A stretch of 64,000 nt of DNA, taken from NCBI GenBank assembly GCA_002269645.1, contig NIVC01001878.1, positions 17,946 through 81,945 of the forward strand, in the 5' to 3' direction. Below are positions 5,849-36,139 of the stretch, piece after piece. The stretch is from Macrostomum lignano. Taxonomy: Eukaryota. Each line of letters begins with the position of its first letter. The first letter of the stretch is position 1. Position numbers and translations under genes: made by a program. Below the pieces are notes generated by a model. That model searched no databases. It saw only the letters and a program-made list of their open reading frames with translations, and was not told where the DNA came from.

Positions 5849-6061
5849 TGTAGTGACTGTGCATCGGGCCTAGGTGTTGTAACTAACTAACTTTGAGGCT
5901 AGAATTGTTCAATTACTTTATATGCATCGTGCGTTCAATCATGGTATCGTTGTTTCGATTGCGTAACACTGTTTTCAACGTGCACATGAGTATAAATATA
6001 TTGAGCGAGACTCAAGTGTCTCCAACTGAATTGAGTTTAATCAATCAACTAGAACACAACA
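5849..6061 (+). repeat. 5' LTR of Gypsy element 1
   Basis: TGTAGTGAC...ACAACA, direct repeat of 9961-10173; contains TATAAATA. Confidence 0.95.
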
Positions 6062-6062
6062 A

Positions 6063-6860: not shown

Positions 6861-9800
6861 AGCACAGACAGCTTATTCTGCGAATGCCGTCTGGGCGGAC
6901 AGCTGATTCGACTGCAAATCGACTGCGGTGCTGCCGTTTCGTTGCTCAACATGGAGACGTTCAAGAAGTCCTTCGCTAGGCACCCGCTGCTTCCGACGAG
7001 CACAAAACTGGAGGCATACGGCGGATCTGCGATCAAGACCATCGGCAAGGTCGAGCTTCCAGTGACGTTCAACGGCATCAGGACAGAAGCCACATTCTAC
7101 GTCGCCGACAAAGGAGCGAACATCCTGGGCCGCGACCTGTTTCAGGCCCTCGGATTCAAAATCTTCCAAGGTGACAACAGAGTGATGAGCATCAGCGAGA
7201 CTACGATCGAGCGCGACTTCCCCGGAATCTTCGACGGTCTGGGCCGGTCCAAGAGCTTCATTCACCGGACAAAGATCGACGCCTCGGTCAAGCCAGTGTC
7301 TCAGCCAATGCGGAAGCTGCCGATCGGCCTGAAGGACGAAGTGACGTCAGAGATCAGCCGGATGGAGCAACAGGGCATCATTGAGAAGGTCGACGCGTCC
7401 GAGTGGGTTAGCAACGTTGTCGTGACGCGCAAGAAGGAGTCCAACAAGGTTCGTCTCTGCGTGGATCTGCGGCAGGTCAACAAGGCGGTGATCGCGGACC
7501 GCTATCCGGTACCGTCAATCGAGGACCTATCGGCCAGCATCAACGGCTCGAAGTGCTTCAGCAAGCTGGACCTGCGTCAAGGCTACCAGCAGATTCCGCT
7601 GCATCCAGACTCTCGAGGACTGACGTGCTTCATCACCGATGCCGGCCTGTACCAGTTCACCGTGGTGCCATTCGGGCTATCTAGCTCCGGAGCTGCCTTC
7701 CAGCGAGCCCTGCAGACGGTGCTTCGAGGAGCTCCTGGCGCCATCAACATCGTGGACGACATCCTGGTGCACGGCAAGGACGAGACTGAGCACGACAAGA
7801 ACCTCCGAGAAGTCCTAGGGCGGATTCATCGCGAAGGCTTCACACTCAATCGAGAGAAGTGCAAATTCCGGCAGGCGAGCGTGGATTTCTTCGGATTGGT
7901 CATCTCTGCAGACGGCATCAAACCGACCAAGTGCAACGTCGACGCAATTCTAAGAATTCCTGAGCCATCAACGGTCGCGCAAATTCAATCGTTTCTCGGG
8001 GCAGTGAACTTTTTGCACAAGTTCATACCGCATTACTCAGCAATTGCCGAGCCTCTGAGACAACTGCTCAAAAGGGACGCGGACTGGCACTGGGGTGAGC
8101 GGGAACGTACAGCCTTCCGTACACTCAAGTCAGCCGTAACCAGCAGCCCAGTGTTAGCTCATTTTGACTGCCAAGCTGAGACGTACGTCACCTGCGATGC
8201 AAGTCTAGACGGACTGGGGGCAGTGCTCAGCCAAGTACAAAACGAAAAAGAGGTGCCAATCGCGTTCGCATCGAGAGCACTCAGCCCAGCGGAAAAGCGA
8301 TACTCAGCCGGAGAGCGAGAAGCCCTGGCCTGTGTATGGAGCATCGAACGCTGGCACTACTATCTATACGGCAGACGAGTAACGCTGCGCACCGACCACA
8401 AGGCCCTGACAACTCTGCTCGACTCGAAAGGCATGGGGCACAGGCCTCTTCGCATTCATCGATGGGTCGAGAGACTTCGCGGCTACGACGTCCGGTTTGA
8501 GCACATCCCTGGCGCTGACAACAAGTGCGCGGACATGCTGTCCAGATGGGCCACGACGGAGCGCGTTCCAGCCGAGGAGACCGACGAGGAGGGCTACGTC
8601 TACGCAGTCGTCGACTCGAAGACAACGCTGACGGCAGACGCACTGGCAACGGCGACCAAGGAGGACGAAGTGCTGCAGGCGGTTTTGCAGTACATCTCGG
8701 GCGAGTGGCCAACGAAGGTGGACAGCTCTCTAAAGCCGTACTTCAACGTCCGGGACGAGCTGTTCTGCTGGAACAACGGTCAGTGCCTCGGTCGTGGTGA
8801 ACGCGCGATCATCCCGACGAGCCTGCGACTTCAAGTCATCGAGGAGGCCCACGAAGGGCATCCGGGCGTCGTTCGGTCAAAGCAGCGGTGCCGCGACACG
8901 GTCTGGTTTCCTGGAATTGACCGGCAGGTGGAGGACTACGTCAAGAACTGCACGGCCTGCACTCTGGCGGAGAAGTCCGGCAAGCCTCAACAGACGATCG
9001 TGACACCAATCGAGTGGCCAGATGGACCGTGGGACAAGGTCGAGATCGACATCTTCGGCGAGGTCGCCGCGGCTCCTCGACACCAGCGGTTTCTACTGGT
9101 GATCCACGACCTGTACAGCAAGTGGCCGGAGATTGCAGCCATGGAAACCGTCACCTCTGCCAACATCATCAAGACGCTTCGGAAGCTATTCGGCCGGTGG
9201 GGAGTCCCGAAGATGCTGATCAGCGACAACGGACCCCAGTTCGTCAGCGACGAGTTCGAAGAGTTCCTGCGAGCCGAGGGCATCAAGCACAGCCGAGTGA
9301 GCCGGTACTACCCGCAAGGCAACGGCGGAGTCGAGCGATTCAACCGGAGTCTGAAGGAGGGCCTGGCAGCGAACCTGAGGGCGGGAGCGAAGTTCGAGGA
9401 CGCTATCGACCTGGTGCTCAAGACCTACAGGACCAGCCAGCACGCTCTCACCGGGCTGACTCCAGCCGAGCTGATGATCGGGCGCAAGCTGCGGTCCGGA
9501 CTGCAGCTGCTCAGGCCAACTCCAGTGCAACAGCGGGACGACAGCGACCTGCGAGACAGTATCGCACAGAGGCAAGCCAAGAATGCCGACTACACCAACA
9601 AGCGAAGGCGAGCTCGTGACTCTATGCTCCAGGCCGGAGACTGGGTCTGGCGACAGACGCCGCACCGAGCGCACAAGCTGGCGACCCGACTGAAGGAACC
9701 GCTAAAGATCGCCTCCAAAGCAGGGCGCAACACCTTCGTGCTGTCCGACGGTACAAAGTGGCAAGCGAGTCGGCTGGTTAAGTGCAGCAGCCCACCGGCT

Positions 9801-9965
9801 GACAACGGCGCGGCCGACCAAGAGGACGACTGGTTCGATTTGCCGCTGCCGCCGGCTCCGCCCCCACGGACGGGCGAGCCGCCACCTCCACCTGAACGTC
9901 GAAGGTCAACTCGAGCTCGACGGCAACCGGCGCGTTATCCTCTTCCGGAAGGGGGGAGAATGTAG
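6861..9965 (+). CDS. pol: Pol of element 1 (PR-RT-RNaseH-IN), same frame as gag directly after its TAG
   Basis: PR IDCGAAVSL, RT VPFGL...NIVDDILV, RNaseH TCDASLDGLGAVL...EREALA, IN HEGHPG...CTAC / IDIFG...SDNGPQF...VERFN. The stop codon lies in the first bases of the 3' LTR. Confidence 0.95.
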   Translation, partial: STDSLFCECRLGGQLIRLQIDCGAAVSLLNMETFKKSFARHPLLPTSTKLEAYGGSAIKTIGKVELPVTFNGIRTEATFYVADKGANILGRDLFQALGFKIFQGDNRVMSISETTIERDFPGIFDGLGRSKSFIHRTKIDASVKPVSQPMRKLPIGLKDEVTSEISRMEQQGIIEKVDASEWVSNVVVTRKKESNKVRLCVDLRQVNKAVIADRYPVPSIEDLSASINGSKCFSKLDLRQGYQQIPLHPDSRGLTCFITDAGLYQFTVVPFGLSSSGAAFQRALQTVLRGAPGAINIVDDILVHGKDETEHDKNLREVLGRIHREGFTLNREKCKFRQASVDFFGLVISADGIKPTKCNVDAILRIPEPSTVAQIQSFLGAVNFLHKFIPHYSAIAEPLRQLLKRDADWHWGERERTAFRTLKSAVTSSPVLAHFDCQAETYVTCDASLDGLGAVLSQVQNEKEVPIAFASRALSPAEKRYSAGEREALACVWSIERWHYYLYGRRVTLRTDHKALTTLLDSKGMGHRPLRIHRWVERLRGYDVRFEHIPGADNKCADMLSRWATTERVPAEETDEEGYVYAVVDSKTTLTADALATATKEDEVLQAVLQYISGEWPTKVDSSLKPYFNVRDELFCWNNGQCLGRGERAIIPTSLRLQVIEEAHEGHPGVVRSKQRCRDTVWFPGIDRQVEDYVKNCTACTLAEKSGKPQQTIVTPIEWPDGPWDKVEIDIFGEVAAAPRHQRFLLVIHDLYSKWPEIAAMETVTSANIIKTLRKLFGRWGVPKMLISDNGPQFVSDEFEEFLRAEGIKHSRVSRYYPQGNGGVERFNRSLKEGLAANLRAGAKFEDAIDLVLKTYRTSQHALTGLTPAELMIGRKLRSGLQLLRPTPVQQRDDSDLRDSIAQRQAKNADYTNKRRRARDSMLQAGDWVWRQTPHRAHKLATRLKEPLKIASKAGRNTFVLSDGTKWQASRLVKCSSPPADNGAADQEDDWFDLPLPPAPPPRTGEPPPPPERRRSTRARRQPARYPLPEGGRM

Positions 9966-10173
9966 TGACTGTGCATCGGGCCTAGGTGTTGTAACTAACT
10001 AACTTTGAGGCTAGAATTGTTCAATTACTTTATATGCATCGTGCGTTCAATCATGGTATCGTTGTTTCGATTGCGTAACACTGTTTTCAACGTGCACATG
10101 AGTATAAATATATTGAGCGAGACTCAAGTGTCTCCAACTGAATTGAGTTTAATCAATCAACTAGAACACAACA
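9961..10173 (+). repeat. 3' LTR of Gypsy element 1
   Basis: Appears identical to 5849-6061. Confidence 0.95.
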
Positions 10174-18665: not shown

Positions 18666-18792
18666 GTGCCCAATCCTGAAGACAGCTCTGATGTGGTCTT
18701 CCAGCGACACCTGGATAACAGCCTTTCGTTCGCACAGAACTGGGACACCTACGTGAGGGGATTCGGAGATCCCAGCGGCAACTACTGGATGG
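18666..18792 (+). CDS. Fibrinogen-related domain (FReD) exon; 5' boundary uncertain, other exons not found
   Basis: VVFQRHLDNSLSFAQNWDTYVRGFGDPSGNYWMG matches the FReD VFQRR.DGS..F...W..Y..GFG...G.YWLG motif and ends at a phase-1 G|GTGAG donor. Confidence 0.65.
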
Positions 18793-20029
18793 GTGAGCGG
18801 GTGGGTGACCCAGAGCCCATCTGGTTGGTAATCCAACGCAATTCAAGAGTACTGTGTGATGCAGTGAGCAGGTACTGGTGAGGGCGAGAGGCAGAGACAG
18901 CTCTTTTACAGCACATTTGAATTGCAAGCCCAGTACAAAGTTTAGCGGGTGGCAAGCTCCAAGTCACCACGTGTACAATCCGGGCCCCCAGACCAGAAGG
19001 GATGGGAGTGTACATTGTATGTACGATTATTCCTTTCTTTTTAATTAGCCAACTTAACTCAGCCCAACGACGAACGCCATCCATGCAAGCATCGCCAAGC
19101 AATCGCATGCAAATGCAATGCGGTATGCAGCTTAATCTGAAGAATTTTGGTTCAAAAGTGTCGGCGGGCAAACTTTGGCGGGCAAACGTCGTACCCCTAT
19201 GGTAAGATGGGGTTGTAGATGTGTTTTCGTATTTCTCAATAAACCGCTCAGCTTGCCTACCTTCCCTTTCCACCCCTTATGGGGTGAAAAGCGGTCATCA
19301 ATAGTTGCAGCCGAGGCAGTCTTAGCTGCCAGCTGCAACCCGCTTCGCGCTCAGAAAGGCAGGCTAGTGCTCGTCCTCGCGGGTTTGGGTCCAGGGTCAA
19401 TTTTGGTTGACGTCCTGGCGATACATACTATAGAAATGATCCCTAAAAGTATGATCTTGAAGATTGAGTGGCAATTTCAACTGGCATATGTGTGACCACT
19501 GGTAACATGGTGAATGAAAACTTCGTTTTCGTAAACTCGCTAATTTGAAATTTCTTTGACCTGAGTACTAGGCCGTTAAAATATTATTATAAACTCATAA
19601 ATACACGGTTCACCTACTTTTCCAATTGGATTTGATGTTTACTGCTATTGTATCAGTGTTCAAACAATTAGACGAGTAGGGGGTCAAATATACTACACGC
19701 ATAATACGTCGTGCTACTTAAAGTAGACGAAAAGCTTTTATTTTGAAAAATCTGTAATTTATTAATTGACGGGTCTCCGACTGTTGGGCTGCCTTACTGG
19801 AGGCGCTTCTCGGGTTGTGCGCGCAATCCAATTGACCTGCCGTACTCGGGTACAATTATTAAATGCCCCCTCACCGGAAGTGATGTGCATTCTAAAAATA
19901 ACTTCTTTCTGCCCTGCCCGGCCAGTTTTGATGCCTGCAGCCCGGCCCTGATGATCGAGGCTGAGCCGTTGAGCCCCAGGTACTTGTAAATGTATGGTGA
20001 TCGTCCATTAATTATTTGTGTTTTTATCC

Positions 20030-21067
20030 TATAAGAGTTAGAAATCTGAAGTTTTGACCCCAAGTTAGAAGATAGGTAGAAATTTATGAAAAGCCCAGGC
20101 GCAGTGAAGGGCGAGGCAGAAGAGTACAATGGAACCCCTATATAGCTATTAGAAGAGCAAACAGAAGCAGCTTTAAGATAATTAATCAACTGTCAAGTCA
20201 ATTTGAATAGCCGAATCTAACAAAGCCTCCTTCCATTCCAGTTAGTAGCGTCACCCCGCCGCAGGCACAATGGCGACTAAACCGGCCGGGAAAAGCAAAC
20301 TGAGCAGCAGCCTGACTTAGAGAACAACGCGGCACGCGGCATCTTCTGGCGCACCCTGAGGGAGAAAACGTGAGGCCCACCTAGAGACTCCTACCCAACC
20401 CGAAGCTGCCCAAGAAGGCGAGATCAACCCCAAGCTGCCTGACAACCGAGAGAAACAGAGGACTGTTTAATCATTCATGGACAGAGTGTAGAGACGGAAA
20501 ACTAAGCACTTTTTCTATAATCTTTCTATCCCAAATTTTATCCAACTCAACACATAGATTTGCGAAAGCCCGAATAATCTCTAACCTTCACACTTAGCAA
20601 CCTACTAGAACTAACTAAATTCATGTACAATTAGGGGACTGAGTCCCAGTTTGTTATTGCTCAAAACCCCCCGCCGTTGCTAACAACGCGAAGACACCCC
20701 ACCGGCGGCGGGGGAGGCCAAACATGCTAATTGGTACAAATAGACGCTCATCTCAAACTGGAGCGGCGCTTCGTTTTTTTCCTGCGCAGTTATTCGATCT
20801 TGAATTGCTCCATTTGAATTAGTTTCTGGATTATCCAGTTGGCAGAAACCCGAGTCTCAAATCGATCATTTGCCTTAACTGTGACATAGGGCAAATCTTA
20901 GGGAGACTCCAACTCAGCTTAGATACTAGGAGATCCCGTCAGTTTATACGGTCTTCTCTGACGGCCTGATAGGAGAGACTAAGAGCTGTAAGAACCTTAG
21001 ACCGCTAGACATCTATCTTAAGAAAGTGAGAACGCGAACTCAAAGGCCCCAGAGAAAGACGCGTATA
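20030..21067 (+). repeat. 5' LTR of element 2 (TATA...TATA termini)
   Basis: Direct repeat of 32779-33816; boundaries set by where identity ends and by the TSD. Confidence 0.93.
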
Positions 21068-21069
21068 AG

Positions 21070-21082
21070 TGGTTCCCTGACC
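21070..21082 (+). promoter_or_regulatory. Primer-binding site TGGTTCCCTGACC (tRNA-Glu(CUC)-type)
   Basis: 2 nt after the 5' LTR; 13-nt complement of the ...GGUCAGGGAACCA 3' end of metazoan tRNA-Glu(CUC). Confidence 0.8.
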
Positions 21083-22626
21083 TCGGAGTCATCTGATCAA
21101 CAGCTCTTCGATTTTCACCTGACGAGATCGCCCGGTATGGCTGAGTAACTTCATCGGCGGAGGACGGAGCGTGGAAGGCCAGGATGAGTGCAGTCACCTT
21201 TTAATTCTCTTTCTACGTAATTACTCTGTGTCGTAGAAGGACACAAACGCGTCCTTATTCAAAAAGAAAAAATTGATAAAATGCTAAAACGAACAAAAAA
21301 AATTGATAAAATTCGAAAACTAACAAAAACAATTAACTGTATTACCTTCCCTGGTGATGAACAGCGTTTCACTGCCAGTGGACACATAGACTAACCATAC
21401 TTTATCTGTTCGCGTAGAAGAGAATTTAATCAATTTTAATCACTTAACACTGTCTAAGAGGGTAGCTACCTGGATACCATAATTGATTTTGTCTAACAAT
21501 TGAATAATCATTTTCTGTTGAAACGGATCCGTAATTTATAATCCAGCCACAAGGTATGGCAATAATCCAGCCACAAGCTATGGCAAGTACCGTGCACGGG
21601 AATTACTTTTGATCACTTTAATCGACTGATCACTAAGGAGCTCACTTTACTAATTGCGCGCGCGAGTTTGGCCCGCGGGAAGGCAGGTCCTTGCGGGGAG
21701 AGTTCTACTCTCGGCAGCAGGGTTGACGTAAAGAATAGAGGTGCGAGTCACTGAGATGTCCTTATCCGGATCGGGCATCTCCCTGCCTAGCACTTCCATT
21801 CTGCACAGACGCCCGCCCGTGTCACTGCACCCTGCCAGTGTAGTGTCTTAGGGTTGTTAAACTAACACGTCTGCCCCACCAGGCATAGCTACATAAACCC
21901 TCGTTAATACTGAGCTCACTTTTCAAGGCATCTCAAGCCAACATAATACTGCTAACAGCGGGAAAGCCCGCAGAAATGAGTGATACTAAAAATAACTACA
22001 GCATTCCGCTATTTCCAGCTGCGCAACCTTAGCCATTCCAGGAGAAGCGCTACTTTTGATTGAATTATATTGTTAACCATTTATTAGGCGCACATAACAA
22101 AGCCAAGCAGAATCAATTCAAATGAAATTGTCCAGTTGCCTTCGAATTCATAGCTGCACCGGCACACTCCAAAGCCTGCGGGCACAGTCAATTTAATTCT
22201 CAATAAGTACACATCTTGCGTTATATTGCATAAACGTTAAATGCGGAATTTTGTTTTATTGCTTGAAATGACAGTCACTATGACAAAATGCATATAGCAA
22301 CACTATAATTATTTTACAACAAATGCGAATTGTTTGGTACAACAAAAACCCACCCCGACTGCACCGCCTGAGCCTGAAGCGTATCCTAACCTCTGCCCCT
22401 TCTCAATTTGTCTATTTAAAACCGTTTAATTGCTCACTAGCAGACCAGCACTGCCAACGATATTTTGTTTGTCTTTTATTATACTACTTGCAACCTGAAT
22501 CGTACCAATTTTTTGCGGCCCACACCGCAACGTTTACAAGCGCATCCTCACTTTTTGGAAGATTACCAAGCTCCAGACCCTACAGGTCTACCTAACAATC
22601 GACGTACTGCCCAAGCCAGAAGGCGC

Positions 22627-24324
22627 ATGCTTCAACAAGAAGAACAGCACCAAGAAGACTTGCATCAAGACGATCCTCAACAAGACCAGCAACAACCAGA
22701 AGAAGCACTACAAGACAACATGGCCGAAGATTTAGCGCAACTACAGGAGCGTATCAACGACCTGACAAGACAATTGGCACTGCAGCAGACCCGAGATCTA
22801 CCGACAGTTGTCCAAGCCATCAAGCTATCAGTAGGAGACTACGAAATGGGACGCTCATTCGTCCGTTGGTTACGAGAGTTCGAACTTCAAGCGCAAACAT
22901 ATGGACTGGGAAATGCTGAGAGATGTCGACTACTACCACTACTGCTACGACCGAATGCTCGCAATCAATACTCAACTCTGGACGAGGCAACTCGCCTGAA
23001 CTACGAGGAACTGATACCAGCACTACGGGCAATGTTCGACACCCGAAGGATGGACCGATCAACGGCGATTCTACAACTGGCATCCCGCAAGATGCAACCG
23101 GGAGAAGACGTCAACAAATTCATCGCAGATATCACCAACCTGGTCGAGAACTCCGTCTATCAAGAACCAGCCCCGGAAGAAGAAAATGCAGCAGATGCGG
23201 CACTACGGCGACAGAGGAACCAACGGATCATTCAAGATCACATCATGCTACACGTCCAGCAGAACGCAGTTCCGGCACTACGACTTCACCTAGCCAGAGG
23301 ACGCTATCAAACAGTGACGGAAATGACTCGAGAGGTACTGCAATGGCAAGCACTTCACGACATTGAGCGAGAAACCGAGGACACCCGCAAGCTATCGGCA
23401 TTGGTCGCCCAGATGGAGGCGACGATCAAGACAGTGAACAACAGACCGCAACAGTCATGGAACAATCCACGCCCGCGAAGCGGAAACGCAGCGACAAGCT
23501 GCCAGTTATGTCAGAAGCAGGGACATACGGCAGACAGGTGCTATCAGCGCAACCGACAGCAAGGCGCTAGCCCAGGAAGCAGCCGTCAACAGCCACAAGG
23601 AGCCAGAGGCACCAGCAGAAACTGCAACAATTGCGGTAAGCCTGGCCATTTGGCCGCTCAGTGCCGACGTTATTGTCACCATTGTAAGCAGAAGTCTCAC
23701 TGGACAGTTGAATGCGACCGCCCGAGCCCCCAGAGACAGGGCCAACCGGCTCAGCGTCAAGGATACCCGAGCAATAGGAATAACGGCTATCAAGGTCCTC
23801 AGCACAATAACGGCTACCAAGGTCCTCAATACAACAACGGCCGACCAAATCAGCAACGGCAACCACGACAAATCGCGGAAGTAACCGAGGAACAACCTCA
23901 GCAACAGCCACCGGCAGACATTCTAGCTGTGTTCACCCAGGAAGAAGAGAAAACAGCGGAACTAGTGGTGACTCGCGACGACTTCATTCAAGCTCGACGA
24001 CAGCTCCGCAAAGCAGCCAAGGTCAAGATTGGCTACAATACAGCGGTGACACCAACACCGCAACCACGGCAAACTGCAGAAGTAACCAAGGAGCAGCCTC
24101 AGCAACAGCCACCGACGGACACTCCAGCAGAGTCGACCAAGCAAAAAGAGACAGTTACGGAACCAGCGGTAACCCGCGACGACATCATTCAAGCCAGGCG
24201 ACAACTTCGCAAGGCAGTCAAGGAGGTCAAGATCGGCCACATCACGACGCGACACCAACACCGCGCTCCGAGAGCGACCGGACGAGAAGCAAGAGCGACC
24301 ACAGAAGATCGAGAAATGTCCTGA
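22627..24324 (+). CDS. gag: Gag of element 2 (coiled coil, capsid, three CCHC knuckles, Q/N-rich and duplicated C-terminal tail); frame is open upstream of this first ATG
   Basis: FVRWLREFE...LLPLLL...A...Y..L....NYEEL...L...F...QLASRKMQPGEDVNKF capsid pattern; CQLCQKQGHTADRC, CNNCGKPGHLAAQC, CHHCKQKSHWTVEC. Confidence 0.9.
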   Translation: MLQQEEQHQEDLHQDDPQQDQQQPEEALQDNMAEDLAQLQERINDLTRQLALQQTRDLPTVVQAIKLSVGDYEMGRSFVRWLREFELQAQTYGLGNAERCRLLPLLLRPNARNQYSTLDEATRLNYEELIPALRAMFDTRRMDRSTAILQLASRKMQPGEDVNKFIADITNLVENSVYQEPAPEEENAADAALRRQRNQRIIQDHIMLHVQQNAVPALRLHLARGRYQTVTEMTREVLQWQALHDIERETEDTRKLSALVAQMEATIKTVNNRPQQSWNNPRPRSGNAATSCQLCQKQGHTADRCYQRNRQQGASPGSSRQQPQGARGTSRNCNNCGKPGHLAAQCRRYCHHCKQKSHWTVECDRPSPQRQGQPAQRQGYPSNRNNGYQGPQHNNGYQGPQYNNGRPNQQRQPRQIAEVTEEQPQQQPPADILAVFTQEEEKTAELVVTRDDFIQARRQLRKAAKVKIGYNTAVTPTPQPRQTAEVTKEQPQQQPPTDTPAESTKQKETVTEPAVTRDDIIQARRQLRKAVKEVKIGHITTRHQHRAPRATGREARATTEDREMS

Positions 24325-24415
24325 CACTGACGAGCCCAAGCCACAGATAGCGATTCGACAGCCGAGAACTACACCGACATGGAGCCAAAGCCGACGAACA
24401 GCCTCAACCACAGGA

Positions 24416-26290
24416 TGGCTGCTGCGAATAGTACTGCTCGCACTGTTCTGCACCGCGGCTGGCAACGCAACAACGGCACAGCACAGCAGCTACGTGGACA
24501 CACCACTCTACTGCCCAGAAGCGAACAGCCTTCAAGCCTTCAAATTGCCTCCGGACATCGAATGCACAGTCCCGAGTAGCATTCAACAGCATCGGCAACC
24601 GATCAACATCACAGTCTACAAGGAGAACCAGGTATCACACCGGTCTACACTGAAGATATGTTACCGAGAGACCTACACGTTCACGAGTAAGCCACAGATT
24701 GTTGTAACATCACAAGTGGTAAGTCCAGCCATGACTGTTACTGTGCAACAACATTCAGTTTCGAAGGACGATTGTAAAACATGGGAAGAAAACACCCGAA
24801 CCCAAGATGGGACTTTAGAAGCAGGAACTAAGGCTATGGGACAAGCTAAAAGATTCATTACCCATAAGTGGACAACCCAGGAATTGGAACCTACAGCCAG
24901 TACAGCTCAAACCTTCACTCAAACAGTGTCAGTCCTAATCACCCAGGTCTCATTCTTTGTGGAAGAGAAAAAGATGTCTTCGTTAGCCCTCCCTATAGGT
25001 CAATGCGACTACAAGACAGGAACCTGTACCACGACTACTAGCCTCACGGCAGAGAAGGACTCGCCACTGAACCGACAGGCACCAGACAGACTCTGGGCCG
25101 TAATGGAATACTATGATCTCAGCTACACAGTGAGAGGAGATAGACAATACCGCCTAGTATGGACACCCAGCGCAGAGATAGACTGCCCCTATCAAACAGA
25201 CAGATTCATTCAAGGCAAAATTCACACTGGATGGTTCATGTCTAACGACGCTACGTTTGCCCTCACATTCAAACATCCACCTCAGACTAAGGACTTACAA
25301 TGTGGAGACACGACAGTAAAGCTATACAAGTCGGAACAAGGTAAACTAGTCCAGGTGCACGGCTCAGACCAAGAGTTTCGCAGCATAATTGAAGGTTCAT
25401 TCAACAATTCAAGCACCGCTAAGAGACCAAAACGAGACCTCACATCGGACACAACGCTAGCAGCAAAATTACAAGGGCTAGAACTCACAATGGAAGACAG
25501 AATAGGCGACCTTACTCGAAACATGATACTACAACAATGCAAGCATCAGCAAACACTGTTTCGGTACATAAAAGATCTTTTTCTTATGCAGCCCACCCTA
25601 GCAGCGCGCACTTTGTTCAAAGACAGCCAATTAAAAGCCACCACGCTAGCACAGCATGTAGTCATTTCTAAGTGCCTACCCATCAGAAACTTTCGTTTTC
25701 ACCAACCAAGATGGGATGAGAATATCTGCTTTACCAAACCACCAATTGCCTTCACGATATTCAACATGAACCACACAGGCTTTCTAGATGTTAGAACCCT
25801 GGAAATCCAAAAGGAACACCCGCCATTTCACGATTGCTCTAACCAAACGTCGTATTTCCTACCAAAAGGAGACGAAATCTACAAAACAGACCTCAACTTT
25901 ACGAAATTTACTGTGCAAACGGTCACTAAGCTAGAAAGAGAAGCGTGGGGGGTAACCCTCATAAAACCCCCAGAGATTCAGCATGTCATATTCACTCCTG
26001 ATGGAGACATCAGGATAGCCGATCTCAAAAGCCCGGTCACAGTACACGACTTGTACAACCAGCTAAATGACCAGAGAGAGTTCTTAAGAACTGTTTTCAA
26101 ACTGCCCAAGTCAGAAACCTCTCACTCTATACATCTTCCACCGTTAGATGCCACCATAGCGGAAGGCACCTTTGATCCAGCAAGTTGGCTACCATGGCTA
26201 GGCATGCGAGTGAATCTTTTCGATATCGCTGTAGGAGTAGCTGCCATTGGGTTCTACATATATCTTTTATACCAAATGATCCTTATCTGC
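24416..26290 (+). CDS. env: Envelope glycoprotein, class III fusogen-like (herpes gB / chuvirus G type), inside the frame open from 24173 to 27700
   Basis: Signal-like WLLRIVLLALFCTAAG (24416-24463), 12 ectodomain Cys, several N-X-S/T sequons, furin site KRPKR (25421-25435), helix LAAKLQGL...QQC, QPTLAARTL...ATTLAQHVVISKC motif, TM segment 26216-26290. Confidence 0.8.
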
Positions 26291-26539
26291 CACAGACTCA
26301 ACAAACAGAAGTACCAACGTCCTGGCATCCGCACGATCCAGCGCAAAGCTGCTGCAAAGCAAGAACAGCAGGAGCTACAGGAGTTACGAGCACCGCTAGT
26401 AGCGAACTCGACAAGCCAGAACACGCGGCAGGAGACCACGACAACCAGACAGGCACCACAGCGCCCGCCACCGTGGACGCCACCAGCACCAGCATCAACA
26501 GGACTCTACCCGAAGATAGAGTCCAGTTGGCCACCTCCG

Positions 26540-27505
26540 ATGGTGGCGACGGTCAACAACGGCCAGAAGCAGAAGTACACAATCACCCGACTTCAAGTGG
26601 GAACGCGATCCTGCCGAGCCCTGATCGACAGTGGAGCCGAACGATCCTTAATCGACGAAGCCACAGCAAAGCGATACGGCAGGACCTTCAAGCCGGCCAC
26701 AGTTGAACTGCAAGGAGTACAAGGCTCACGACTACAGCAATCCGGCATGATCAACCTCCCTGTGGAAGCTGGCGACACCACGGCTGACGTTGAGTTCCAC
26801 GTTATTCCCAATTTGAGTTCAGGAACTTATCAAGTCTTATTAGGCATCGATTACTTATCTCAACTAAATCAGGGCGTGCTCGTAAACTATCAGCAACAGA
26901 ATATCCATCTCAACGGGAAATGCTATGACATCCTCGCTATCACTACAAAAGAACCCGTTAACTGCATCAGATTAGTCTCTACAGTCAATCTCAATCCATG
27001 GGAAACAACTCGAATTTCCGCAAGAGCCATCGCCAGAGAGAAACTACCTCCAGCTATGCTTTTCGAACCCAACGAACGTATCCTAGAGAAGAAACCCATT
27101 TGCCTTACACCCGAATTGGTATACCCTGACGAGTCAGGAGAGGTTCAAGTCATCATTTCAAACGAATCGGCAACCCCAATGACACTATATCCAGACACCA
27201 ACATAGGATCTTTCGATACAGAAATCCAAGCCTTTGAAATTGCCGAAATCCAGTCAGAAACCCCAACAATGACGGAACAAGAGTTCAAGAACGCCATTGA
27301 TCTCAAAGGATCCAACCTGACAGAATCCCAGAAAGAACAGCTCATTAAGGTTCTCTGGGACAACAAGAAAGCCTTTTGCCTATCCGAGGAGGAAATAGGA
27401 TACACAGATGTAGCGAAACACGAGCTTCACATTAAGCCTAACGTGGAGATTAAGCTCAACAAACGGTACCCAATCCCATACCAACTCACGGGAGAACTCC
27501 AAAAA
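26540..27505 (+). CDS. pol: Aspartic protease, beta-rich spacer and start of RT, in frame with env
   Basis: RALIDSGAERSLI (Asp codon at 26627), VLLGIDYL, then YPIPYQL at the RT N-terminus. Confidence 0.9.
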
Positions 27506-30240
27506 TCATCGATAGAATGGAAATGCAAGGAATTCTTAGAAAAGCAGCCACCCCGTACATCTCACCAATTCTATTGGTCAAGAAGAAACCGGAATCGCCT
27601 CAAGCCAAACCAGTGTACCGTCTCTGTGTTGATTTTCGGGACCTCAACCAAATCCTGGTCCCAGAAAGGCAATGCATGCCCCGAATCCCAGACCTCTTAG
27701 CCAAATTAAAGGGATCAGAATATTTCACTACTCTCGACATGGCGCAAGCATTTTTTCAAGTGGCGCTAGAAGAAGAAAGTCAGAAGTATTGTGGCATCTC
27801 CACGCCCGACGGACAAACTTACGTCTTCACCAGAGCCCCAATGGGTCTACAAACCTCACCAGCAGCCCTCTCTAGAGCAGCTAGCTTAATCCTTCAAGGG
27901 ATTAACAGAGTCTCAACATACGTAGACGACCTACTTGTCTTCAATGAGACATTTGAAGACCATCTCGAGACATTGAAAGCTACACTAGAAGCTCTAGGAA
28001 AGTACGGCATGAAGTTGAAATTACAAAAGTGCAAATTCGCTAAGCCCACAATCACATTCCTAGGACATAAGATAGACAAAAATGGAATACAGATTGATAG
28101 AGCTTTAGTCGACAAAGTGCAGAAGGTACCAAAGCCACAAAATGTCACACAGCTCAGATGTTTCCTAGGACTCTGCAATTTCTTTCGCAAACACGTACCT
28201 AACTACGCCAAGAAAGCCAAGCCACTCACAGACCTGCTTAAGGGCACACCGAACACTAAGGCTCAAGCATCCAAAACCCCACTAAAGTGGACAGAAGAAG
28301 CGACCCAGACCTTTGAAGACATGAAAAAATGGATAGCAGAAGATCTCAGACTCACTCACCCTGACTTTAATAAACAGTTCATTGTCTCCAGCGACGCTTC
28401 TACAAAAGGCATAGGCGCAATGCTCTCACAGAAAGATGAGACAGGAAAAGAAAAACCAATAGCATTCACGAGTCGACAACTGAGAGAGGCAGAGACAAGA
28501 TATGCGGTCACCCATTTAGAACTCTTAGCCGTCTTTTACGCATTCAAGACATTCGAACAATTTCTGTACGCAGCACAAATACCCACATTGCTAAGAATAG
28601 ATCATGCACCACTCAGAGGTCTACTCACAGGGAAAACCCTGCGGAACAATCAGGTACTCAGATGGCTTCTCTATTTACAACAGTTTCAAATGCAAATTGA
28701 GTACGTCCCAGGCGCATCCACCAAACACGCAGTCCCAGACGCACTCTCAAGACTATATGAGGACCAAGAGACACCCATTAACTTTGTCACGATCAAGCAC
28801 CCGATACCACACCTGCAAGCCTTAAAAGAGGCTCAAGCAGAAGACCCATTCTGCCAAGGCATTCGAGCACTATGGGAACAAAAGCCCATGGATGACAGCT
28901 TAGCTATGAGATACAAAAGACACATCCAGCGACATCTATCGGACTATGCGGATATTCACGGAATCATTCACAGGACAGCAGATCACACCCAACAAATAGT
29001 GCTCCCATTCAAGTACCGTGAAACAATCTGCCACTCGTTACACGCACTACCACTAGCAGCGCACTTAGGCTTTGACAAAACCCTAGAAAGAATTAGGCGA
29101 CACTATTTTTGGATCTCAATGGTTTCCGATATTCGAACCTTCTGTCAAGACTGCATGGATTGCGCTAAGAACAAATCTGGCCAACTGCATAAGGGACTCA
29201 TCCAAATGCCTGAAATTCCGATGAAACCAATGGACAAGCTATCAGTAGACCTAGTAGGACCCATGGTCCCCACGAAAATCCGGAACGAGACCGTCACCCA
29301 CATCCTGACTATCCTGTGTTGTTTTTCAAAATTCGCCTTTGCATTCCCGATTCCAGATCTATCAGCAGAAACCACAGCCGAAACTTTGTTCCAAGTCTTC
29401 TGTATGTTTGGAATCCCGATGGAAATTTCCACCGATAATGGAAAAAATTTCACGGCATCGCTATTAGCGGAAGCTCTAGAAATTCTGGGAGTCAAGCACA
29501 TCTTCTCGTCTACCTACCATCCGCAAGCAAACCACGTAGAGAGACTACACTCTACCCTACATAACATGCTTAGACATTACACTGCGGAGAATCCAAACGA
29601 ATGGCATAAATATCTATCAGCCACAATCTACGCCTACAATACAGCCAAGCAATCCTCTTCAACTTATTCTCCCTTCGAATTGGTTTTCGCAAGGAAACCC
29701 CTGATGCCCACAGAGCTCACAACTCAGCTGAACCTAGTAAGATACATGGATGAGCCGTCCTATGCAGCCCGAATGCAAGAAGCTATCACCCTGGCTAGAG
29801 ACATAGCCAGACACCATCTCAAAGTGGCCCAGGAAAAGAACACAGGCAGAGCTAACAAAAACCGAATGGCCCCTACATTAGCCATAGGCACCAGAGTTAT
29901 GCTACAGATCCCAATGAGACAGGGAAAGCATCAAGCCAAGTTCACGGGTCCATACGAAATTGTGAAAAGAAATAGTGTCACGTCCGTCATGATAAGGAAA
30001 ATTGACGATCCGACTCAAGAACCCTTTCAGGTGCACACGGACAGGCTAAAGCCAATAGCATCGCCAACACCTAAGGTACTGCTCCCCGATCTGCGCCCGA
30101 GTGATCCGCGAAGACTGCAACGCCAGCACCGGCAACTGTTCAGCAAGGAAGTGGGCGTACAAGCTGATGACGAGACGCTCGCGGACACAGTTCGAAAGAA
30201 GTACAATCTAAGGAGCAAACCCATACTCCTAGACAAATGA
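27505..30240 (+). CDS. pol: RT-RNaseH-integrase of element 2 (-1 frame relative to env-PR)
   Basis: RLCVDFRDLN, APMGL, YVDDLL, SSDASTKGIGA, HLELLAV, HALPLAAH...CQDCMDC, SVDLVGP/STDNGKNF/VERLH, GPY motif. One extra A in the run at 27501-27505 restores LQKIIDRMEMQG. Confidence 0.93.
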   Translation: MIDRMEMQGILRKAATPYISPILLVKKKPESPQAKPVYRLCVDFRDLNQILVPERQCMPRIPDLLAKLKGSEYFTTLDMAQAFFQVALEEESQKYCGISTPDGQTYVFTRAPMGLQTSPAALSRAASLILQGINRVSTYVDDLLVFNETFEDHLETLKATLEALGKYGMKLKLQKCKFAKPTITFLGHKIDKNGIQIDRALVDKVQKVPKPQNVTQLRCFLGLCNFFRKHVPNYAKKAKPLTDLLKGTPNTKAQASKTPLKWTEEATQTFEDMKKWIAEDLRLTHPDFNKQFIVSSDASTKGIGAMLSQKDETGKEKPIAFTSRQLREAETRYAVTHLELLAVFYAFKTFEQFLYAAQIPTLLRIDHAPLRGLLTGKTLRNNQVLRWLLYLQQFQMQIEYVPGASTKHAVPDALSRLYEDQETPINFVTIKHPIPHLQALKEAQAEDPFCQGIRALWEQKPMDDSLAMRYKRHIQRHLSDYADIHGIIHRTADHTQQIVLPFKYRETICHSLHALPLAAHLGFDKTLERIRRHYFWISMVSDIRTFCQDCMDCAKNKSGQLHKGLIQMPEIPMKPMDKLSVDLVGPMVPTKIRNETVTHILTILCCFSKFAFAFPIPDLSAETTAETLFQVFCMFGIPMEISTDNGKNFTASLLAEALEILGVKHIFSSTYHPQANHVERLHSTLHNMLRHYTAENPNEWHKYLSATIYAYNTAKQSSSTYSPFELVFARKPLMPTELTTQLNLVRYMDEPSYAARMQEAITLARDIARHHLKVAQEKNTGRANKNRMAPTLAIGTRVMLQIPMRQGKHQAKFTGPYEIVKRNSVTSVMIRKIDDPTQEPFQVHTDRLKPIASPTPKVLLPDLRPSDPRRLQRQHRQLFSKEVGVQADDETLADTVRKKYNLRSKPILLDK

Positions 30241-30400
30241 TGTCAGGAGATGGGGGGAGAGTACAGAGACTATAAAGACTATTTGATTTACGTATTCATT
30301 CGTTGGCGTGCTGTGCACACTAGATATAGATATCCACACTAACTATTCACTCAAATATCAATACTTAATTTTACCCTTCTAAAATTACTCATTATACCAG

Positions 30401-31183
30401 ATGTATGACCGACAGCTCGATACGCTAGATGACTGTACCCTGGGAGACGAAGATACCCAGACACCGTGTCCTATAGTTCGACCTCTCTTCAAGCCAACAT
30501 CTCACACCGAAACTGATGACCCTAAGTGGCCCGAGCAAGATATGTCAACATGGACAGAACAACAGCTGGACAAGCTACGACAGGAATGGCAACGACGCCG
30601 ACCTACGCTCCCACGACAAGCAAGCACGGCAACATCGGCGAGCAACGATTTCCGCCAGGCTAAAACACTCGCAGAGCGATTCCAAACAGCTCTGGCGGCA
30701 CAGACGGTAGTTCAAAGCAAGCCGGCGCGGTATGATGAAACGAAACTGTTTGACATTCACCAGCAGATGCTTGACATGCCACTAATACCCGCTAACATCG
30801 TCACACACCTTACTACGCGACGCATCCTGTCAGATCCTAAAGACCCACGCTGGTTACTCTCTGACTATTCTATCTTGAACTTCAACACGACGCTCTTTTT
30901 CCTCTACGACGACACAGCTGCGTTCTCTTGTCTCCGTATCATAGTATGGAACAGCAGGGTGACGACAACCCTAATCCATCCTCGTGGACCGACCAGCACA
31001 CTATCACTCCAAGCCGACATGCTTATCACTTATCTACTCAACACCTTAAATTATCACGGCATCGAAATCAAACCCAAGGAACGGCAATCGATAGCCACGA
31101 TTGCGTATTCACCGGCCAACCTACAATGGCACCACCTTTTCACAGCGTTGAAAGCAGCAGAAGGCCCCAACCTGGACCCTTGA
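30401..31183 (+). CDS. Accessory ORF A of element 2 (260 aa, unknown function)
   Basis: Intact ORF inside the element; the ATG is directly preceded by a pyrimidine-rich tract and CCAG (acceptor-like); no family recognised. Confidence 0.6.
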   Translation: MYDRQLDTLDDCTLGDEDTQTPCPIVRPLFKPTSHTETDDPKWPEQDMSTWTEQQLDKLRQEWQRRRPTLPRQASTATSASNDFRQAKTLAERFQTALAAQTVVQSKPARYDETKLFDIHQQMLDMPLIPANIVTHLTTRRILSDPKDPRWLLSDYSILNFNTTLFFLYDDTAAFSCLRIIVWNSRVTTTLIHPRGPTSTLSLQADMLITYLLNTLNYHGIEIKPKERQSIATIAYSPANLQWHHLFTALKAAEGPNLDP

Positions 31184-31663
31184 GGTGCTATAGGAAGGCC
31201 CGGTTGCAAGAGAACAAAAGGATAATACAAGGGATGAAATACTGCCCTAGGGTTGTAGCGAATTGGTGGGATACCAATCCGCCTCATCCCTGAGGCACCT
31301 TCACCCACAGGTACGCTCCTTTGTTCAATGCAGCCTCACAGCAGGGCGGTCTACTCTTGGGATAAGACTAGACCAAACGAAAGTGAATTTTTGAAGCGAG
31401 CTACAACGCTATATAATCTAACACTAACCACATTAACCTTGAAACAAATTGTATCCACAAATATTGCTCATCCTGATAATTTTTGCACCCGAATTGTATC
31501 TCTCGATATATTCTCTATGTTACTCTTTATTCTCAACGTCGTGATATTCGACGCCCACTGACACTTATACACCCGATTGATAACCATGTTTATGACATAC
31601 AAAATAGACTTCCCGAATATATATTGTTATTAAATAATCTAATCAATGCAATCATTTTGCTTA

Positions 31664-31924
31664 CTAGGCAGGTAGGGCCTGGTAACGACGCCGGTAGAGG
31701 CAGCAGAATAATAGAACTAGGAGTAGACACAGGAGGAGGCCGCCGCCCCCCACTCCGCCCAGCCAACCTTGTAGTGTACGTAGCCCATAATCTTGCGAAA
31801 CCGATCGTGATTCCAAGTAAAGCAGTCGCCGCTCGAGACCGACAGACCGGTCTTCCACGGCGTGTAGACGCTCCTTCAACTCGCCAATAATGCGAATCAA
31901 ACGTTGCATAGCAAACTCAGACAT
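31664..31924 (-). CDS. Antisense accessory ORF B (86 aa from first ATG): coiled coil, C-terminal TM helix, CC, RRR
   Basis: Heptad LIRIIGELKERLHAVEDRSVGLERRLLYLE followed by GGGGLLLCLLLVLLFCCLYRRRY. Confidence 0.55.
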   Translation of the reverse strand: MSEFAMQRLIRIIGELKERLHAVEDRSVGLERRLLYLESRSVSQDYGLRTLQGWLGGVGGGGLLLCLLLVLLFCCLYRRRYQALPA

Positions 31925-32240
31925 AATGAGATCAGTTAGCGTTAAGGGCAATCGGAAAACAAGCTGAATAGATAACTTTAGGGGCTACTCTCACATGCGC
32001 CGCGTTTAAAAACGGAAGGAGCCGGCGATTAGAAAAGAAAGGACCCCCCCTGCGGCTCCAAGTCCAGATTCAAAACCCCTCCCCCATGCGTCCCGCCACA
32101 CCCACCACCCCATGTACGCAGGGGATAGATCTAATGTACAGTCGAACCGCTAAGCGAAGCTTTAGGCCAAGGACGATACACACTAAAACCGCCACACGGA
32201 AAATCAATAGCACACTCTTGCTTAATTTCAGAGCATTCCC

Positions 32241-32558
32241 ATGGCCACTTACTCACCCGAAGACGCTTATGCTCGGCGACCCGGCGAAGCCTTTGTGGAC
32301 GTAAATCTCCACGTCCACAAGTGCATCAAAAAGGATGCGCAGACGCAAGTCGCCGAGAGCGACATAGATGGGGGCCATTCAGTGGCCACCCAAGTTGACA
32401 ACGACGCCGAGTGGGGACGCGAGATGACCCCCACGGAGATACCGTGGAGGGGAGGCGACTACACGGCCTCCAGTACCATTCGACCCTGGCCCACACTGCA
32501 GGGATATCGTCAGTACCTATGGGCCAGAAGCGGCAATGTTCAGCTTGAAGATGACTAA
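32241..32558 (+). CDS. Accessory ORF C (105 aa, acidic, two TQV motifs)
   Basis: Intact ORF with a TTTCAG acceptor-like site 9 nt upstream; KDAQTQV and HSVATQV. Confidence 0.5.
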   Translation: MATYSPEDAYARRPGEAFVDVNLHVHKCIKKDAQTQVAESDIDGGHSVATQVDNDAEWGREMTPTEIPWRGGDYTASSTIRPWPTLQGYRQYLWARSGNVQLEDD

Positions 32559-32778
32559 ATACGGCCCATAGATACGACTGTGAACTGTTTCCCCTCAATT
32601 AATTTCCCAGGTTTCGCCTCTTTACACCTTTAACTATCTACGTCTCCAGACGCTTGACTCGTATACAGATTTCTAACGTCTTATATTTGATAATTTCAGT
32701 ACCTGCAATGTCGTTTAGCCCTGATGTCGATTGATCAAATCCTTGTTAGCACAAGGATTTCGAAAAAAGGGGGAATCA

Positions 32779-33816
32779 TATAAGAGTTAGAAATCTGAAG
32801 TTTTGACCCCAAGTTAGAAGATAGGTAGAAATTTATGAAAAGCCCAGGCGCAGTGAAGGGCGAGGCAGAAGAGTACAATGGAACCCCTATATAGCTATTA
32901 GAAGAGCAAACAGAAGCAGCTTTAAGATAATTAATCAACTGTCAAGTCAATTTGAATAGCCGAATCTAACAAAGCCTCCTTCCATTCCAGTTAGTAGCGT
33001 CACCCCGCCGCAGGCACAATGGCGACTAAACCGGCCGGGAAAAGCAAACTGAGCAGCAGCCTGACTTAGAGAACAACGCGGCACGCGGCATCTTCTGGCG
33101 CACCCTGAGGGAGAAAACGTGAGGCCCACCTAGAGACTCCTACCCAACCCGAAGCTGCCCAAGAAGGCGAGATCAACCCCAAGCTGCCTGACAACCGAGA
33201 GAAACAGAGGACTGTTTAATCATTCATGGACAGAGTGTAGAGACGGAAAACTAAGCACTTTTTCTATAATCTTTCTATCCCAAATTTTATCCAACTCAAC
33301 ACATAGATTTGCGAAAGCCCGAATAATCTCTAACCTTCACACTTAGCAACCTACTAGAACTAACTAAATTCATGTACAATTAGGGGACTGAGTCCCAGTT
33401 TGTTATTGCTCAAAACCCCCCGCCGTTGCTAACAACGCGAAGACACCCCACCGGCGGCGGGGGAGGCCAAACATGCTAATTGGTACAAATAGACGCTCAT
33501 CTCAAACTGGAGCGGCGCTTCGTTTTTTTCCTGCGCAGTTATTCGATCTTGAATTGCTCCATTTGAATTAGTTTCTGGATTATCCAGTTGGCAGAAACCC
33601 GAGTCTCAAATCGATCATTTGCCTTAACTGTGACATAGGGCAAATCTTAGGGAGACTCCAACTCAGCTTAGATACTAGGAGATCCCGTCAGTTTATACGG
33701 TCTTCTCTGACGGCCTGATAGGAGAGACTAAGAGCTGTAAGAACCTTAGACCGCTAGACATCTATCTTAAGAAAGTGAGAACGCGAACTCAAAGGCCCCA
33801 GAGAAAGACGCGTATA
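32779..33816 (+). repeat. 3' LTR of element 2
   Basis: Appears identical to 20030-21067 (constant offset 12749 at the positions checked). Confidence 0.93.
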
Positions 33817-34676
33817 TATCCCTTTTTGTTTTACTTTTTGGTCATGAGCCAACTTCAAAATTTTCGCCCCAGTTTTTCTTTGCGCGCGCACACTCGTTAT
33901 TTATGGATCGTTTGCATGGTGGGTGGCTGGGCACTGGAGGGGATCCTAACGCAACTGCGCCTCTAGCTTAAACCGTGTCATTTTTCTAAAGAAACTGACT
34001 GTATGCAAAATACAAGTATTTACGGAAGCAGAATAACGCGGTGTCCCCATAGGTTTAATTGGGTCCTGTATCGCTATGCTAGGGCCAGATCCTAGCCCCA
34101 ATCTTGGTCCCCTACACATCTACATGTAGATCCCGCGGCAGAGCCCTTCCCTGGGCTGACCCTAGGCGAGCTTAGCTCTCCACACCCTGTTTAAAAACAG
34201 TATTATTGTACTTTCGAATTAAAAATTCCAACCTAAAGATAAATCGAGGGACCGAAAGAAGACGAGAAGAAAGATATTATTTTTCCAAAATTACGGTAAG
34301 CATAGCCCGTGTTTCTACTACATGTAGCTGTTAGTAGTTTAATGTTTAGATGCACAATCGGAAAAAATATGAAAATTTTTCTAACTTGATCTCTAATTGA
34401 TAAATGTACTCCTACATGTAATTAAAAATACGATCATCCGCAGCTCCCTGCATCTTCCATTCTGCACCTTTTGTTACTGGGAGAGGACGACTTTTCGTCT
34501 CTTTATTTTAGAGACCTTAATAACATTACAGGTAAGTCTTTAATTATAATTTGTGGAACTGTAATCTCAAAGCATAAATTAGCATTTTAAAGCATAACTT
34601 GTGATTTTATGCTTTCCGTTTATTGCTTATCGGCGACGAGCTATGCACTTGATCTACTACGATGCATGACATATAC

Positions 34677-35372
34677 CAAGGACGACTTAAGTAGAAGGAC
34701 GGGAAACCTCGTTTCTTAGAAAAGTTTTGAAGGCACTTTTTCCCGAAAAATACACTACGGAGATAGGAAGTTTTCATTTTTTCAGCACAAAAATTGTTAT
34801 TGCGTTTGATAGGAGGCAGATCCAGTGTTCATCTTTTGATATGTTGTGCCTTTTTTATTGCTCTATCGATATTTATAAAGCTTTTCGTTCAGAAAATTAG
34901 GATTCTATGTTAATTTTTTATTCTACGTATATTTCCTGTATCTAAAAATCACAAAAATGCATGACGCAGCTCCAATATTTGGTTTTATGAATCTATTTTA
35001 TCATCTCTGTTACAAATATTTGCTACACAGTCGGGTAAGAATGATAAAATAGACTCATGAAACCAAAGAGCCCAGCCGTGGCATTCTAATGTATTTCAAG
35101 CACAAGACACGCGAAAATATACGTAGAATAAAAAATTAACATAGAATCCTAATTTTCTGAACGAAAAGCTTTATAAATATCGATAGAGCAATAAAAAAGG
35201 CACAACATATCAAAAGATGAACACTGGATCTGCCTCCTATCAAACGCAATAACAATTTTTGTGCTGAAAAAATGAAAACTTCCTATCTCCGTAGTGTATT
35301 TTTCGGGAAAAAGTGCCTTCAAAACTTTTCTAAGAAACGAGGTTTCCCGTCCTTCTACTTAAGTCGTCCTTG
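34677..35372. mobile_element. Mutator (MULE)-type foldback MITE
   Basis: 258-bp near-perfect TIRs (34677-34934 / 35115-35372) and 9-bp TSD GACATATAC. Confidence 0.88.
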
Positions 35373-36139
35373 GACATATACATGTACGAGCGTACGTACA
35401 GTATATATGTGACTTAAATGTACAGAGAGTGTCAATTGGACCATGTAATTGTATACACCATGCTAGTGGTCCTTGATGTGTGCATTTATATGTATGTATG
35501 AGGCACTGTTTTAATTACATGTTTATACCCTTATTCATATACTCCATCGTTAATATTTTTATAGCGTCGCTATTGATGAGGACGCTGCACCTTTTTTCAA
35601 TCTTAGAGCCGCACATTTTGCTTCGATGCGCTTTTCCCCTACTGTCAGTCGGCTAGCTTAGGAATTTCTCTCTATTCTCTCATCTAGGCTAAGTTCTATA
35701 CTAATTATGCCATTACTATTAGTTATGTTAGAAGCTCAATGTACTTCGCTTAGGATCCCAATTTTGAATTGTTTATGCATCTCTGAAGGTCAGACTGTCT
35801 GGGTTCGAGACGGATTGACCTACAACAGTCTAGGCAGGCGACACTAAGTCTGGGAGAAGTGTTTTCTGACCCCCAGATTTGTGGATTTTTCCCTGTGTCC
35901 CGTGATTTATGGCCGTCTAGCTGTCACTTTTGGCGCCAGCCTGTCTGGGTCAAAGAGGGTCCTTCCAGCTCTCTCCCCACTCACTCTGTTACTTTCCCCC
36001 TTGATTTATGGGCGTTTTGCTATCACTTTTGGCGCCAGAATGTCTAGACAAGTGACTTTTATTATGTTTTGCTTATGATTTATGATCGCATCTGTCAACT
36101 TCCCTGGGGTCTGAAGGCCACCTGGTGGGGTGGGTTTTG

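Follow-up and report, generated by a model that had tools for sequence, protein, structure and literature searches.

We analyzed a window of 64,000 nucleotides from the flatworm Macrostomum lignano (contig NIVC01001878.1 of assembly GCA_002269645.1, positions 17,946 to 81,945), in which a retroelement with two long terminal repeats (LTRs) occupies positions 20030-33816. All coordinates are those of the window, and all features lie on the forward strand unless stated otherwise. The LTRs (20030-21067 and 32779-33816) are 1038 bp long and show no differences, which places their divergence below 0.29% (95% bound). They end in TATA...TATA rather than TG...CA, with identical termini in every copy displayed. 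The element is flanked by the 5-bp target-site duplication TATCC (20025-20029 and 33817-33821). It contains a primer-binding site (PBS, 21070-21082), of which 13 contiguous bases pair with the CCA-extended 3' end of a tRNA-Glu encoded in the same genome, and a polypurine tract (PPT, 32762-32775). The original prediction, made from the letters of the sequence, had called all four of these features, and each was recovered. Two more copies with two LTRs each are present in the genome, 99.4-99.6% identical to the window element and with their own target duplications. A 5-bp duplication was found at 9 of the 10 LTR loci examined, all nine distinct, the tenth being a 3' LTR whose outer end could not be tested; six of the examined loci are solo LTRs, each with its own duplication. 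Genome-wide, 40 LTR matches were obtained at 87-100% identity (40 of 187 candidates scored), and this range, together with the solo LTRs, shows a long history of activity for the family.

The coding part of the element follows the order Gag, glycoprotein (Env), aspartic protease (PR), reverse transcriptase (RT), RNase H (RH), and integrase (IN), as predicted, and both Pfam and motifs support it. Ahead of gag lies a leader of 1.65 kb (21068-22719) with 15 upstream ATGs, a pattern suggestive of an internal entry site or of another splice. The gag region (22720-24324) encodes a capsid-like region, three CCHC knuckles, and a duplicated tail of about 69 amino acids (23856-24264, with 78% DNA identity between the repeats), and stops at 24324 solely through frame breaks of this copy. 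The tail repeats carry hydrophobic-A-E/V-hydrophobic motifs resembling those that flank PR; these are candidate protease sites that would free Gag from the signal anchor described below. PR (26570-26870, DSG at 26627) is in frame with env, and RT, RH, and IN follow at 27454-30240 (YVDD at 27919; HHCC and DDE in the integrase). Pfam detected a zinc knuckle in gag, then Monjiviricetes_fusion and an aspartic protease in one frame, and then RT, RNase H, and integrase. The families on Pol were of Gypsy type (RT_RNaseH, Integrase_H2C2, and gag-asp_proteas), and no Pao-type family was found among the Pfam matches to the element. The best PDB match of Pol was Ty3 Gag-Pol (E 4e-81), with foamy and other retroviruses ranking far lower. 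With its LTRs, PBS, PPT, target duplication, and PR-RT-RH-IN order, the element is thus confirmed as a young member of Ty3/Gypsy (Metaviridae), in agreement with its first assignment.

The glycoprotein (24416-26290) begins with a predicted internal signal or signal-anchor segment, H1 (24416-24463, with its hydrophobic stretch at 24419-24457), recognized by hydropathy and by basic residues on its N-terminal side. This is followed by a putative class III fusion glycoprotein ectodomain (24464-26209) with 12 cysteines and a furin-type KRPKR site (25421-25435), and by a predicted transmembrane helix, H2 (26231-26287), with basic residues on its C-terminal side. The entire segment holds 14 cysteines and 6 N-glycosylation sequons. 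The signal-like segment, the 12 cysteines, KRPKR, the central helix, and the single transmembrane helix that had been noted at the outset are all present, and the proposed likeness to herpesvirus gB was supported by structure searches. PF24664 (Monjiviricetes_fusion) matched the glycoprotein at 29.1 bits (cut-off 27). An AlphaFold2 model of the ectodomain, built from 41 sequences (pLDDT 77.9, pTM 0.49), contains a helix of 46 residues. Against the PDB, every match listed was a herpesvirus gB (best E 1e-20), and against BFVD the first match was the G protein of Midway nyavirus (E 4e-27). Domain IV of gB superposed on the model with a Z-score of 11.4 and a root-mean-square deviation (rmsd) of 3.9 over 169 aligned residues. 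A closer correspondence is opposed by the low whole-chain TM-scores to gB (0.24-0.37 in the PDB and at most 0.43 in BFVD) and by the pTM of 0.49. On these models, the assignment to the class III fold of herpesvirus gB and nyamivirus G is secure, while the low whole-chain scores mean that conformation and domain packing are not settled by the model. Fold and domain order are shared with herpesvirus gB and with the G proteins of Monjiviricetes and nyamiviruses; identity to these is 10-19%, and the window protein, unlike them, would be released from a retroelement polyprotein.

The env segment is under purifying selection, with a ratio of nonsynonymous to synonymous substitution rates (dN/dS) of 0.17, and a ratio of the corresponding proportions of differences (pN/pS) of 0.29 where dS was saturated. 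Among 17 env segments examined, all 15 intact ones retained the whole ectodomain of about 580 residues with its 12 cysteines and furin-type site. Word-index protein searches, a weak method by its own account, found no longer env homologues; a full HMMER library search returned 64 env homologues. In a quick tree based on loosely cut ranges, the envs from this genome group in a clade of their own, with nematode envs outside it, and a tree of RT sequences separates the two as well. In the nematode homologues, env, PR, and RT succeed one another within one protein (for example, P0027 from Globodera), and endogenous retroviruses of nematodes reportedly have a continuous gag-env-pro-pol frame with a nyamivirus-like env.

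In the window as assembled, gag, env-PR, and RT-IN occupy different frames, and the element is not uninterrupted in its open reading frames (ORFs). The interruptions are three single-base frame breaks, near 24,250, 24,285, and 27,500. All three are missing from the 3 close sister copies, and every covering contig of all 4 sequencing runs, from 4 studies, has the unbroken form at the three sites. Since such contigs lose rare variants, an assembly error and a private mutation cannot be told apart here. The contigs of runs X1 and X4 do not include the host flank, a point to which we give no weight. We considered a programmed +1 frameshift at the gag stop and rejected it, as the breaks are private to the window copy. 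Twenty loci were then taken from 71 env-matching rows, chosen by us with a preference for long frames: gag, env, RT, RH, and IN occur in this order at 19 of them (the remaining one is an env fragment alone), and at 8 the whole of gag-env-pol is a single stop-free frame of 2480-2866 amino acids. The glycoprotein of the window copy lacks a dedicated start codon, and no methionine was found within 60 residues upstream of H1 in the window family or its nearest subfamily. In this family, a single reading frame thus runs from Gag through Env, PR, RT, and RH to IN and includes two membrane segments. The original prediction was right to place env upstream of pol; env is, however, a segment of one polyprotein and not a separate gene. 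Two observations pull in the other direction. Of the 19 ordered loci, 11 carry breaks, at scattered positions, and a methionine lies shortly upstream of H1 in the more distant sister families, in 5 of the 8 rows aligned overall, so that a separate env start is possible there.

These sister families are part of a larger group in the genome, with at least 71 env matches (70 of 294 candidates scored). RT-RH identity between the window family and its sister families is 39-40%, and env identity is about 25%. The RT tree, built without reference elements, gives the window family its own long branch and leaves the three env-bearing groups of the genome unordered relative to one another; it includes six further RT loci that were not checked for env. 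At one sister locus, L021, the ORF matches an NCBI protein (P0001) named Macrostomum lignano with 100% identity across 2859 residues. This 2866-residue polyprotein, labeled at NCBI as a hypothetical host protein, has an env ectodomain of 809 residues, about 220 longer than the usual length of about 585.

The membrane segments of the polyprotein suggest how it might be laid out. Basic residues precede H1 and follow H2 in all 8 aligned rows, and by the positive-inside rule the charge pattern around membrane segments predicts topology. The pattern therefore fits a two-pass arrangement with a luminal Env between cytosolic Gag and Pol, analogous to the membrane-threaded structural polyproteins of flaviviruses and alphaviruses. 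We propose that Gag would be synthesized in the cytosol, that H1 would then act as an internal signal threading the glycoprotein into the lumen of the endoplasmic reticulum, and that H2 would halt transfer, leaving PR-RT-RH-IN on the cytosolic side. The luminal part would be cut by host signal peptidase and furin, and the PR of the element would release Gag as well as the enzymes of Pol. It is probable that capsid, fusogen, and enzymes would in this way be made in a 1:1:1 ratio on a single membrane, with no need for either a frameshift or a spliced env mRNA, and that Env would already be on the particle when it buds. The two-pass topology thus predicts production of Env without an mRNA of its own.

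Several other explanations for this architecture were weighed. If gag, env, and pol were three separate genes linked through programmed frameshifts or splicing, the different frames of gag, env-PR, and RT-IN in the window would be accounted for, and gag does end in a Ser-stop context like that of a +1 shift site. With the three breaks missing from the close sister copies and all four runs, distant families having one ORF, and env lacking a start codon here, we regard this as improbable. There is next to no chance that env results from misassembly or from the separate insertion of a virus (an endogenous viral element) nested in an ordinary Gypsy element, which had been set beforehand as a finding that would overturn the reading. 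Private single-base indels do occur in several assembled copies; yet env keeps its position in 19 of the 20 loci while Gag identity falls to 23-32%, in two runs env and pol are joined on one contig (6.1 kb and 8.8 kb), and env is fused in frame at both ends. Captures of a chuvirus/gB glycoprotein by BEL/Pao elements have been published (as reported in the main text of PMC13524379), and a Bel/Pao element or a true retrovirus with such a captured gene could look similar; given the Gypsy-type Pfam families, the lack of Pao-type ones, and Ty3 as the best PDB match, this is very improbable.

A more serious competitor is that the glycoprotein has been retained for a role other than infection, either to anchor intracellular assembly at a membrane or to fuse cells in the absence of free particles. 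Being joined to Gag and Pol, it would provide anchoring regardless, and the mechanism of transmission is stated to be unknown for most such elements in the main text of PMC13524379. An anchor would require only the helices, while the full ectodomain is kept in all 15 intact envs and is under purifying selection; we therefore consider this role unlikely, though well ahead of the three preceding explanations. Spread of the fusogen-bearing element from cell to cell or from soma to germline is, judging from the sequence, slightly favored as the purpose of the fusogen. Taken as a whole, the window element is very likely a young copy of a Ty3/Gypsy "GAG-ENV-POL errantivirus" family of the Macrostomum genome, with a class III envelope of the HSV/gB type (HSV, herpes simplex virus) within a gag-env-pol polyprotein. 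The position of env, the ectodomain modeled as gB-type and bracketed by a signal/transmembrane segment and a transmembrane segment, and the near-identical copies are among the operational features of this group, and the window element has these three. The group is further marked by uninterrupted ORFs, from which the window copy as assembled departs by its three breaks while the four runs show the unbroken form, and by a trimeric hairpin and a cysteine-bridge class (C1/C2).

The architecture itself is already published, and already listed for M. lignano, so that the original suggestion of an undescribed gene order did not hold and the order adds little by itself. Chary & Hayashi (eLife 2026, PMC13524379) describe in their main text that Ty3/gypsy errantiviruses of Nematoda, Bryozoa, and Platyhelminthes have only HSV/gB-type ENV, in the order GAG-ENV-POL, and attribute the finding that ENV and POL are flipped in non-canonical nematode endogenous retroviruses to Sacco et al. 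2022 (J Gen Virol 103:1739). The window family shares this flipped order; its host is a flatworm, and in the trees the envs and RTs of this genome separate from those of nematodes. Their table holds 9 flatworm elements, including one from M. lignano with 16 copies (Platyhelminthes_Rhabditophora_Mlig_errantivirus_2). As listed there, this element shares with the window family a Ty3/gypsy Pol, a gB-type env between gag and pol, a flatworm host, and a multicopy state. It cannot represent the window family itself, as its LTRs are about 864 bp and its PBS is that of 9 sister-family loci found here, compared with LTRs of 1038 bp and a tRNA-Glu PBS in the window family, a distant sister of the listed one. 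The main text of PMC13524379 makes no mention of a polyprotein, splicing, accessory genes, RING, or frameshift. No envelope or glycoprotein is mentioned in the main text of PMC12801592 on LTR elements of M. lignano, and the window family was not found in its supplements, searched with long cells shortened, which hold six consensus families only. Going by these portions of the two papers, the window family and its three small accessory genes appear to be undescribed; the figure supplements or GitHub set of PMC13524379 may hold the family among raw hits. The family is young and multicopy, and with a tractable regeneration model as its host it makes the spread of gB-type errantiviruses testable.

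The original prediction also listed three extra ORFs behind pol. All three are retained in diverged copies, with the refinement that one of them lies antisense. The first, ORF X (30401-31183), encodes 260 amino acids, with its ATG at the junction of a putative GT..AG intron of 9266 nt (21135-30400) that would remove gag-env-pol. A contig of run X1, for which the status as RNA is only presumed, joins 21134 to 30401, and the donor GT and the CAG|ATG are retained in a subfamily with 84% RT identity. In the gypsy and ZAM errantiviruses of Drosophila, a spliced subgenomic RNA joins the leader to a site behind pol and carries env. These share a Ty3/gypsy backbone with an envelope, but their F-type env is a separate ORF3 behind pol, whereas the window element has a class III fusogen within the polyprotein and ORF X in the spliced slot. 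In the window family, a spliced subgenomic RNA would thus serve accessory genes.

Residues 106-260 (approximately) of ORF X were modeled as a CE-clan (Ulp1/SENP) protease fold. Foldseek matched the low-confidence model to SENP, Ulp1, and NEDD8 proteases and bacterial deubiquitinases (best E 1.6e-4). In a VIA search of 48,161 chains, the top 18 rows were all CE-clan proteases, the best with a Z-score of 10.3 and an rmsd of 3.7 over 148 aligned residues, compared with a Z-score of 6.1 for the first unrelated row. Identity across seven aligned homologues is 35-77%, with a pN/pS of about 0.5 at saturated dS. CE-clan proteases use a His-Asp-Cys triad with the cysteine where the last core helix begins. 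By eye, of the 7 aligned rows, the 6 that reach the usual catalytic helix have no cysteine there, and the only invariant cysteine of ORF X (177) lies in a strand. For lack of the catalytic cysteine, the modeled protein is read as a probable pseudo-protease. Several points count against this picture of a spliced gene with a protease fold. The splice is seen in one contig of one of four runs, with 23 nt on its short side, and not in the other three. The model of ORF X, built from 3 sequences, has a mean pLDDT of 45.7, with residues 161-250 at 57-69. Sequence searches with ORF X found no Pfam family, Atlas match, outside homologue, or PDB sequence match.

In sister loci, one or two cysteine-rich ORFs lie behind pol, in the slot of ORF X (L016, L018, L019, L022, L023, L025, and L027). 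They are up to about 250 amino acids long and have tandem RING-like motifs; two of them have CAG immediately upstream of the ATG. Of the 8 RING-like ORFs scanned against Pfam, one passes zf-C3HC4_3 (30.1 bits, cut-off 27), and 5 have Sina_RING matches, all under the cut-off. Ulp1-like genes are known to have been captured by DNA transposons. At the level of search listings, the literature gave nothing pertinent on capture of SUMO proteases or RING proteins by LTR elements, and we could not find a description of this combination, an accessory gene that is spliced and has a fold like that of SUMO proteases, with RING genes in sister elements. We tentatively suggest, from its model, that ORF X may be a binder that resembles SUMO/ubiquitin proteases, has no catalytic activity, and acts on silencing or turnover in the host. 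More speculatively still, the polyprotein may have taken in the fusogen, and the spliced slot that env thereby left vacant may now carry ubiquitin/SUMO effectors (the dead Ulp1/SENP-fold binder here, and double-RING proteins in sister families) as antagonists of SUMO-dependent silencing or ubiquitin-dependent restriction, alongside an antisense membrane protein and a dynein-light-chain binder. The accessory genes would then point to ubiquitin/SUMO counter-defense by a retrotransposon, and if this were true, a lineage of Metaviridae would have an accessory kit like that of complex retroviruses. A canonical heat-shock element was looked for in the LTR and not found.

The antisense ORF (31664-31924, reverse strand) encodes 86 amino acids with a helical, coiled-coil-like N-terminal part, a glycine linker, a predicted transmembrane helix, and a CC and RRR tail. 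Its dN/dS is 0.11 and 0.41 against two diverged copies, compared with about 4 for the overlapping sense frame; it is conserved under selection, whereas the sense frame is not. A search of the Atlas returned a single row at 0.80, which is chance level. Accessory ORFs were compared using parts of PMC11952523 and PMC5408684. The sORF2/FAST-like proteins of MDG1-group retrotransposons (PMC11952523) are likewise short, with one transmembrane helix and a juxtamembrane basic patch, a mere resemblance. The antisense product differs in having no N-myristoylation motif, an N-terminal part of about 60 rather than about 30 residues, and a tiny C-terminal tail, and the sORF2 candidates described there are all in forward orientation, so that it was rejected as a fusogen of this type. 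ORF B (32241-32558; 105 amino acids) has an AG acceptor-like site 9 nt upstream and is conserved under selection as well (dN/dS 0.18-0.27 against three copies). Both of its TQ motifs are kept in two diverged copies, and one is kept in a third; we take these motifs to resemble binding sites for the dynein light chain LC8.

Elsewhere in the window, a second young Ty3/Gypsy element, without env, lies at 5848-10172 within a 30/31-bp satellite. It has identical 213-bp LTRs and a 5-bp duplication, and its gag and pol share one frame, parted by one TAG of the read-through type. Two host genes were also recognized: an exon for a fibrinogen-C domain at 18670-18790, about 1.2 kb upstream of the env-bearing element, and a rhodopsin-family G protein-coupled receptor at 51640-52563. 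Just downstream of the element, at 34676-35373, is a perfect inverted repeat of 259 bp with a spacer of 180 bp.

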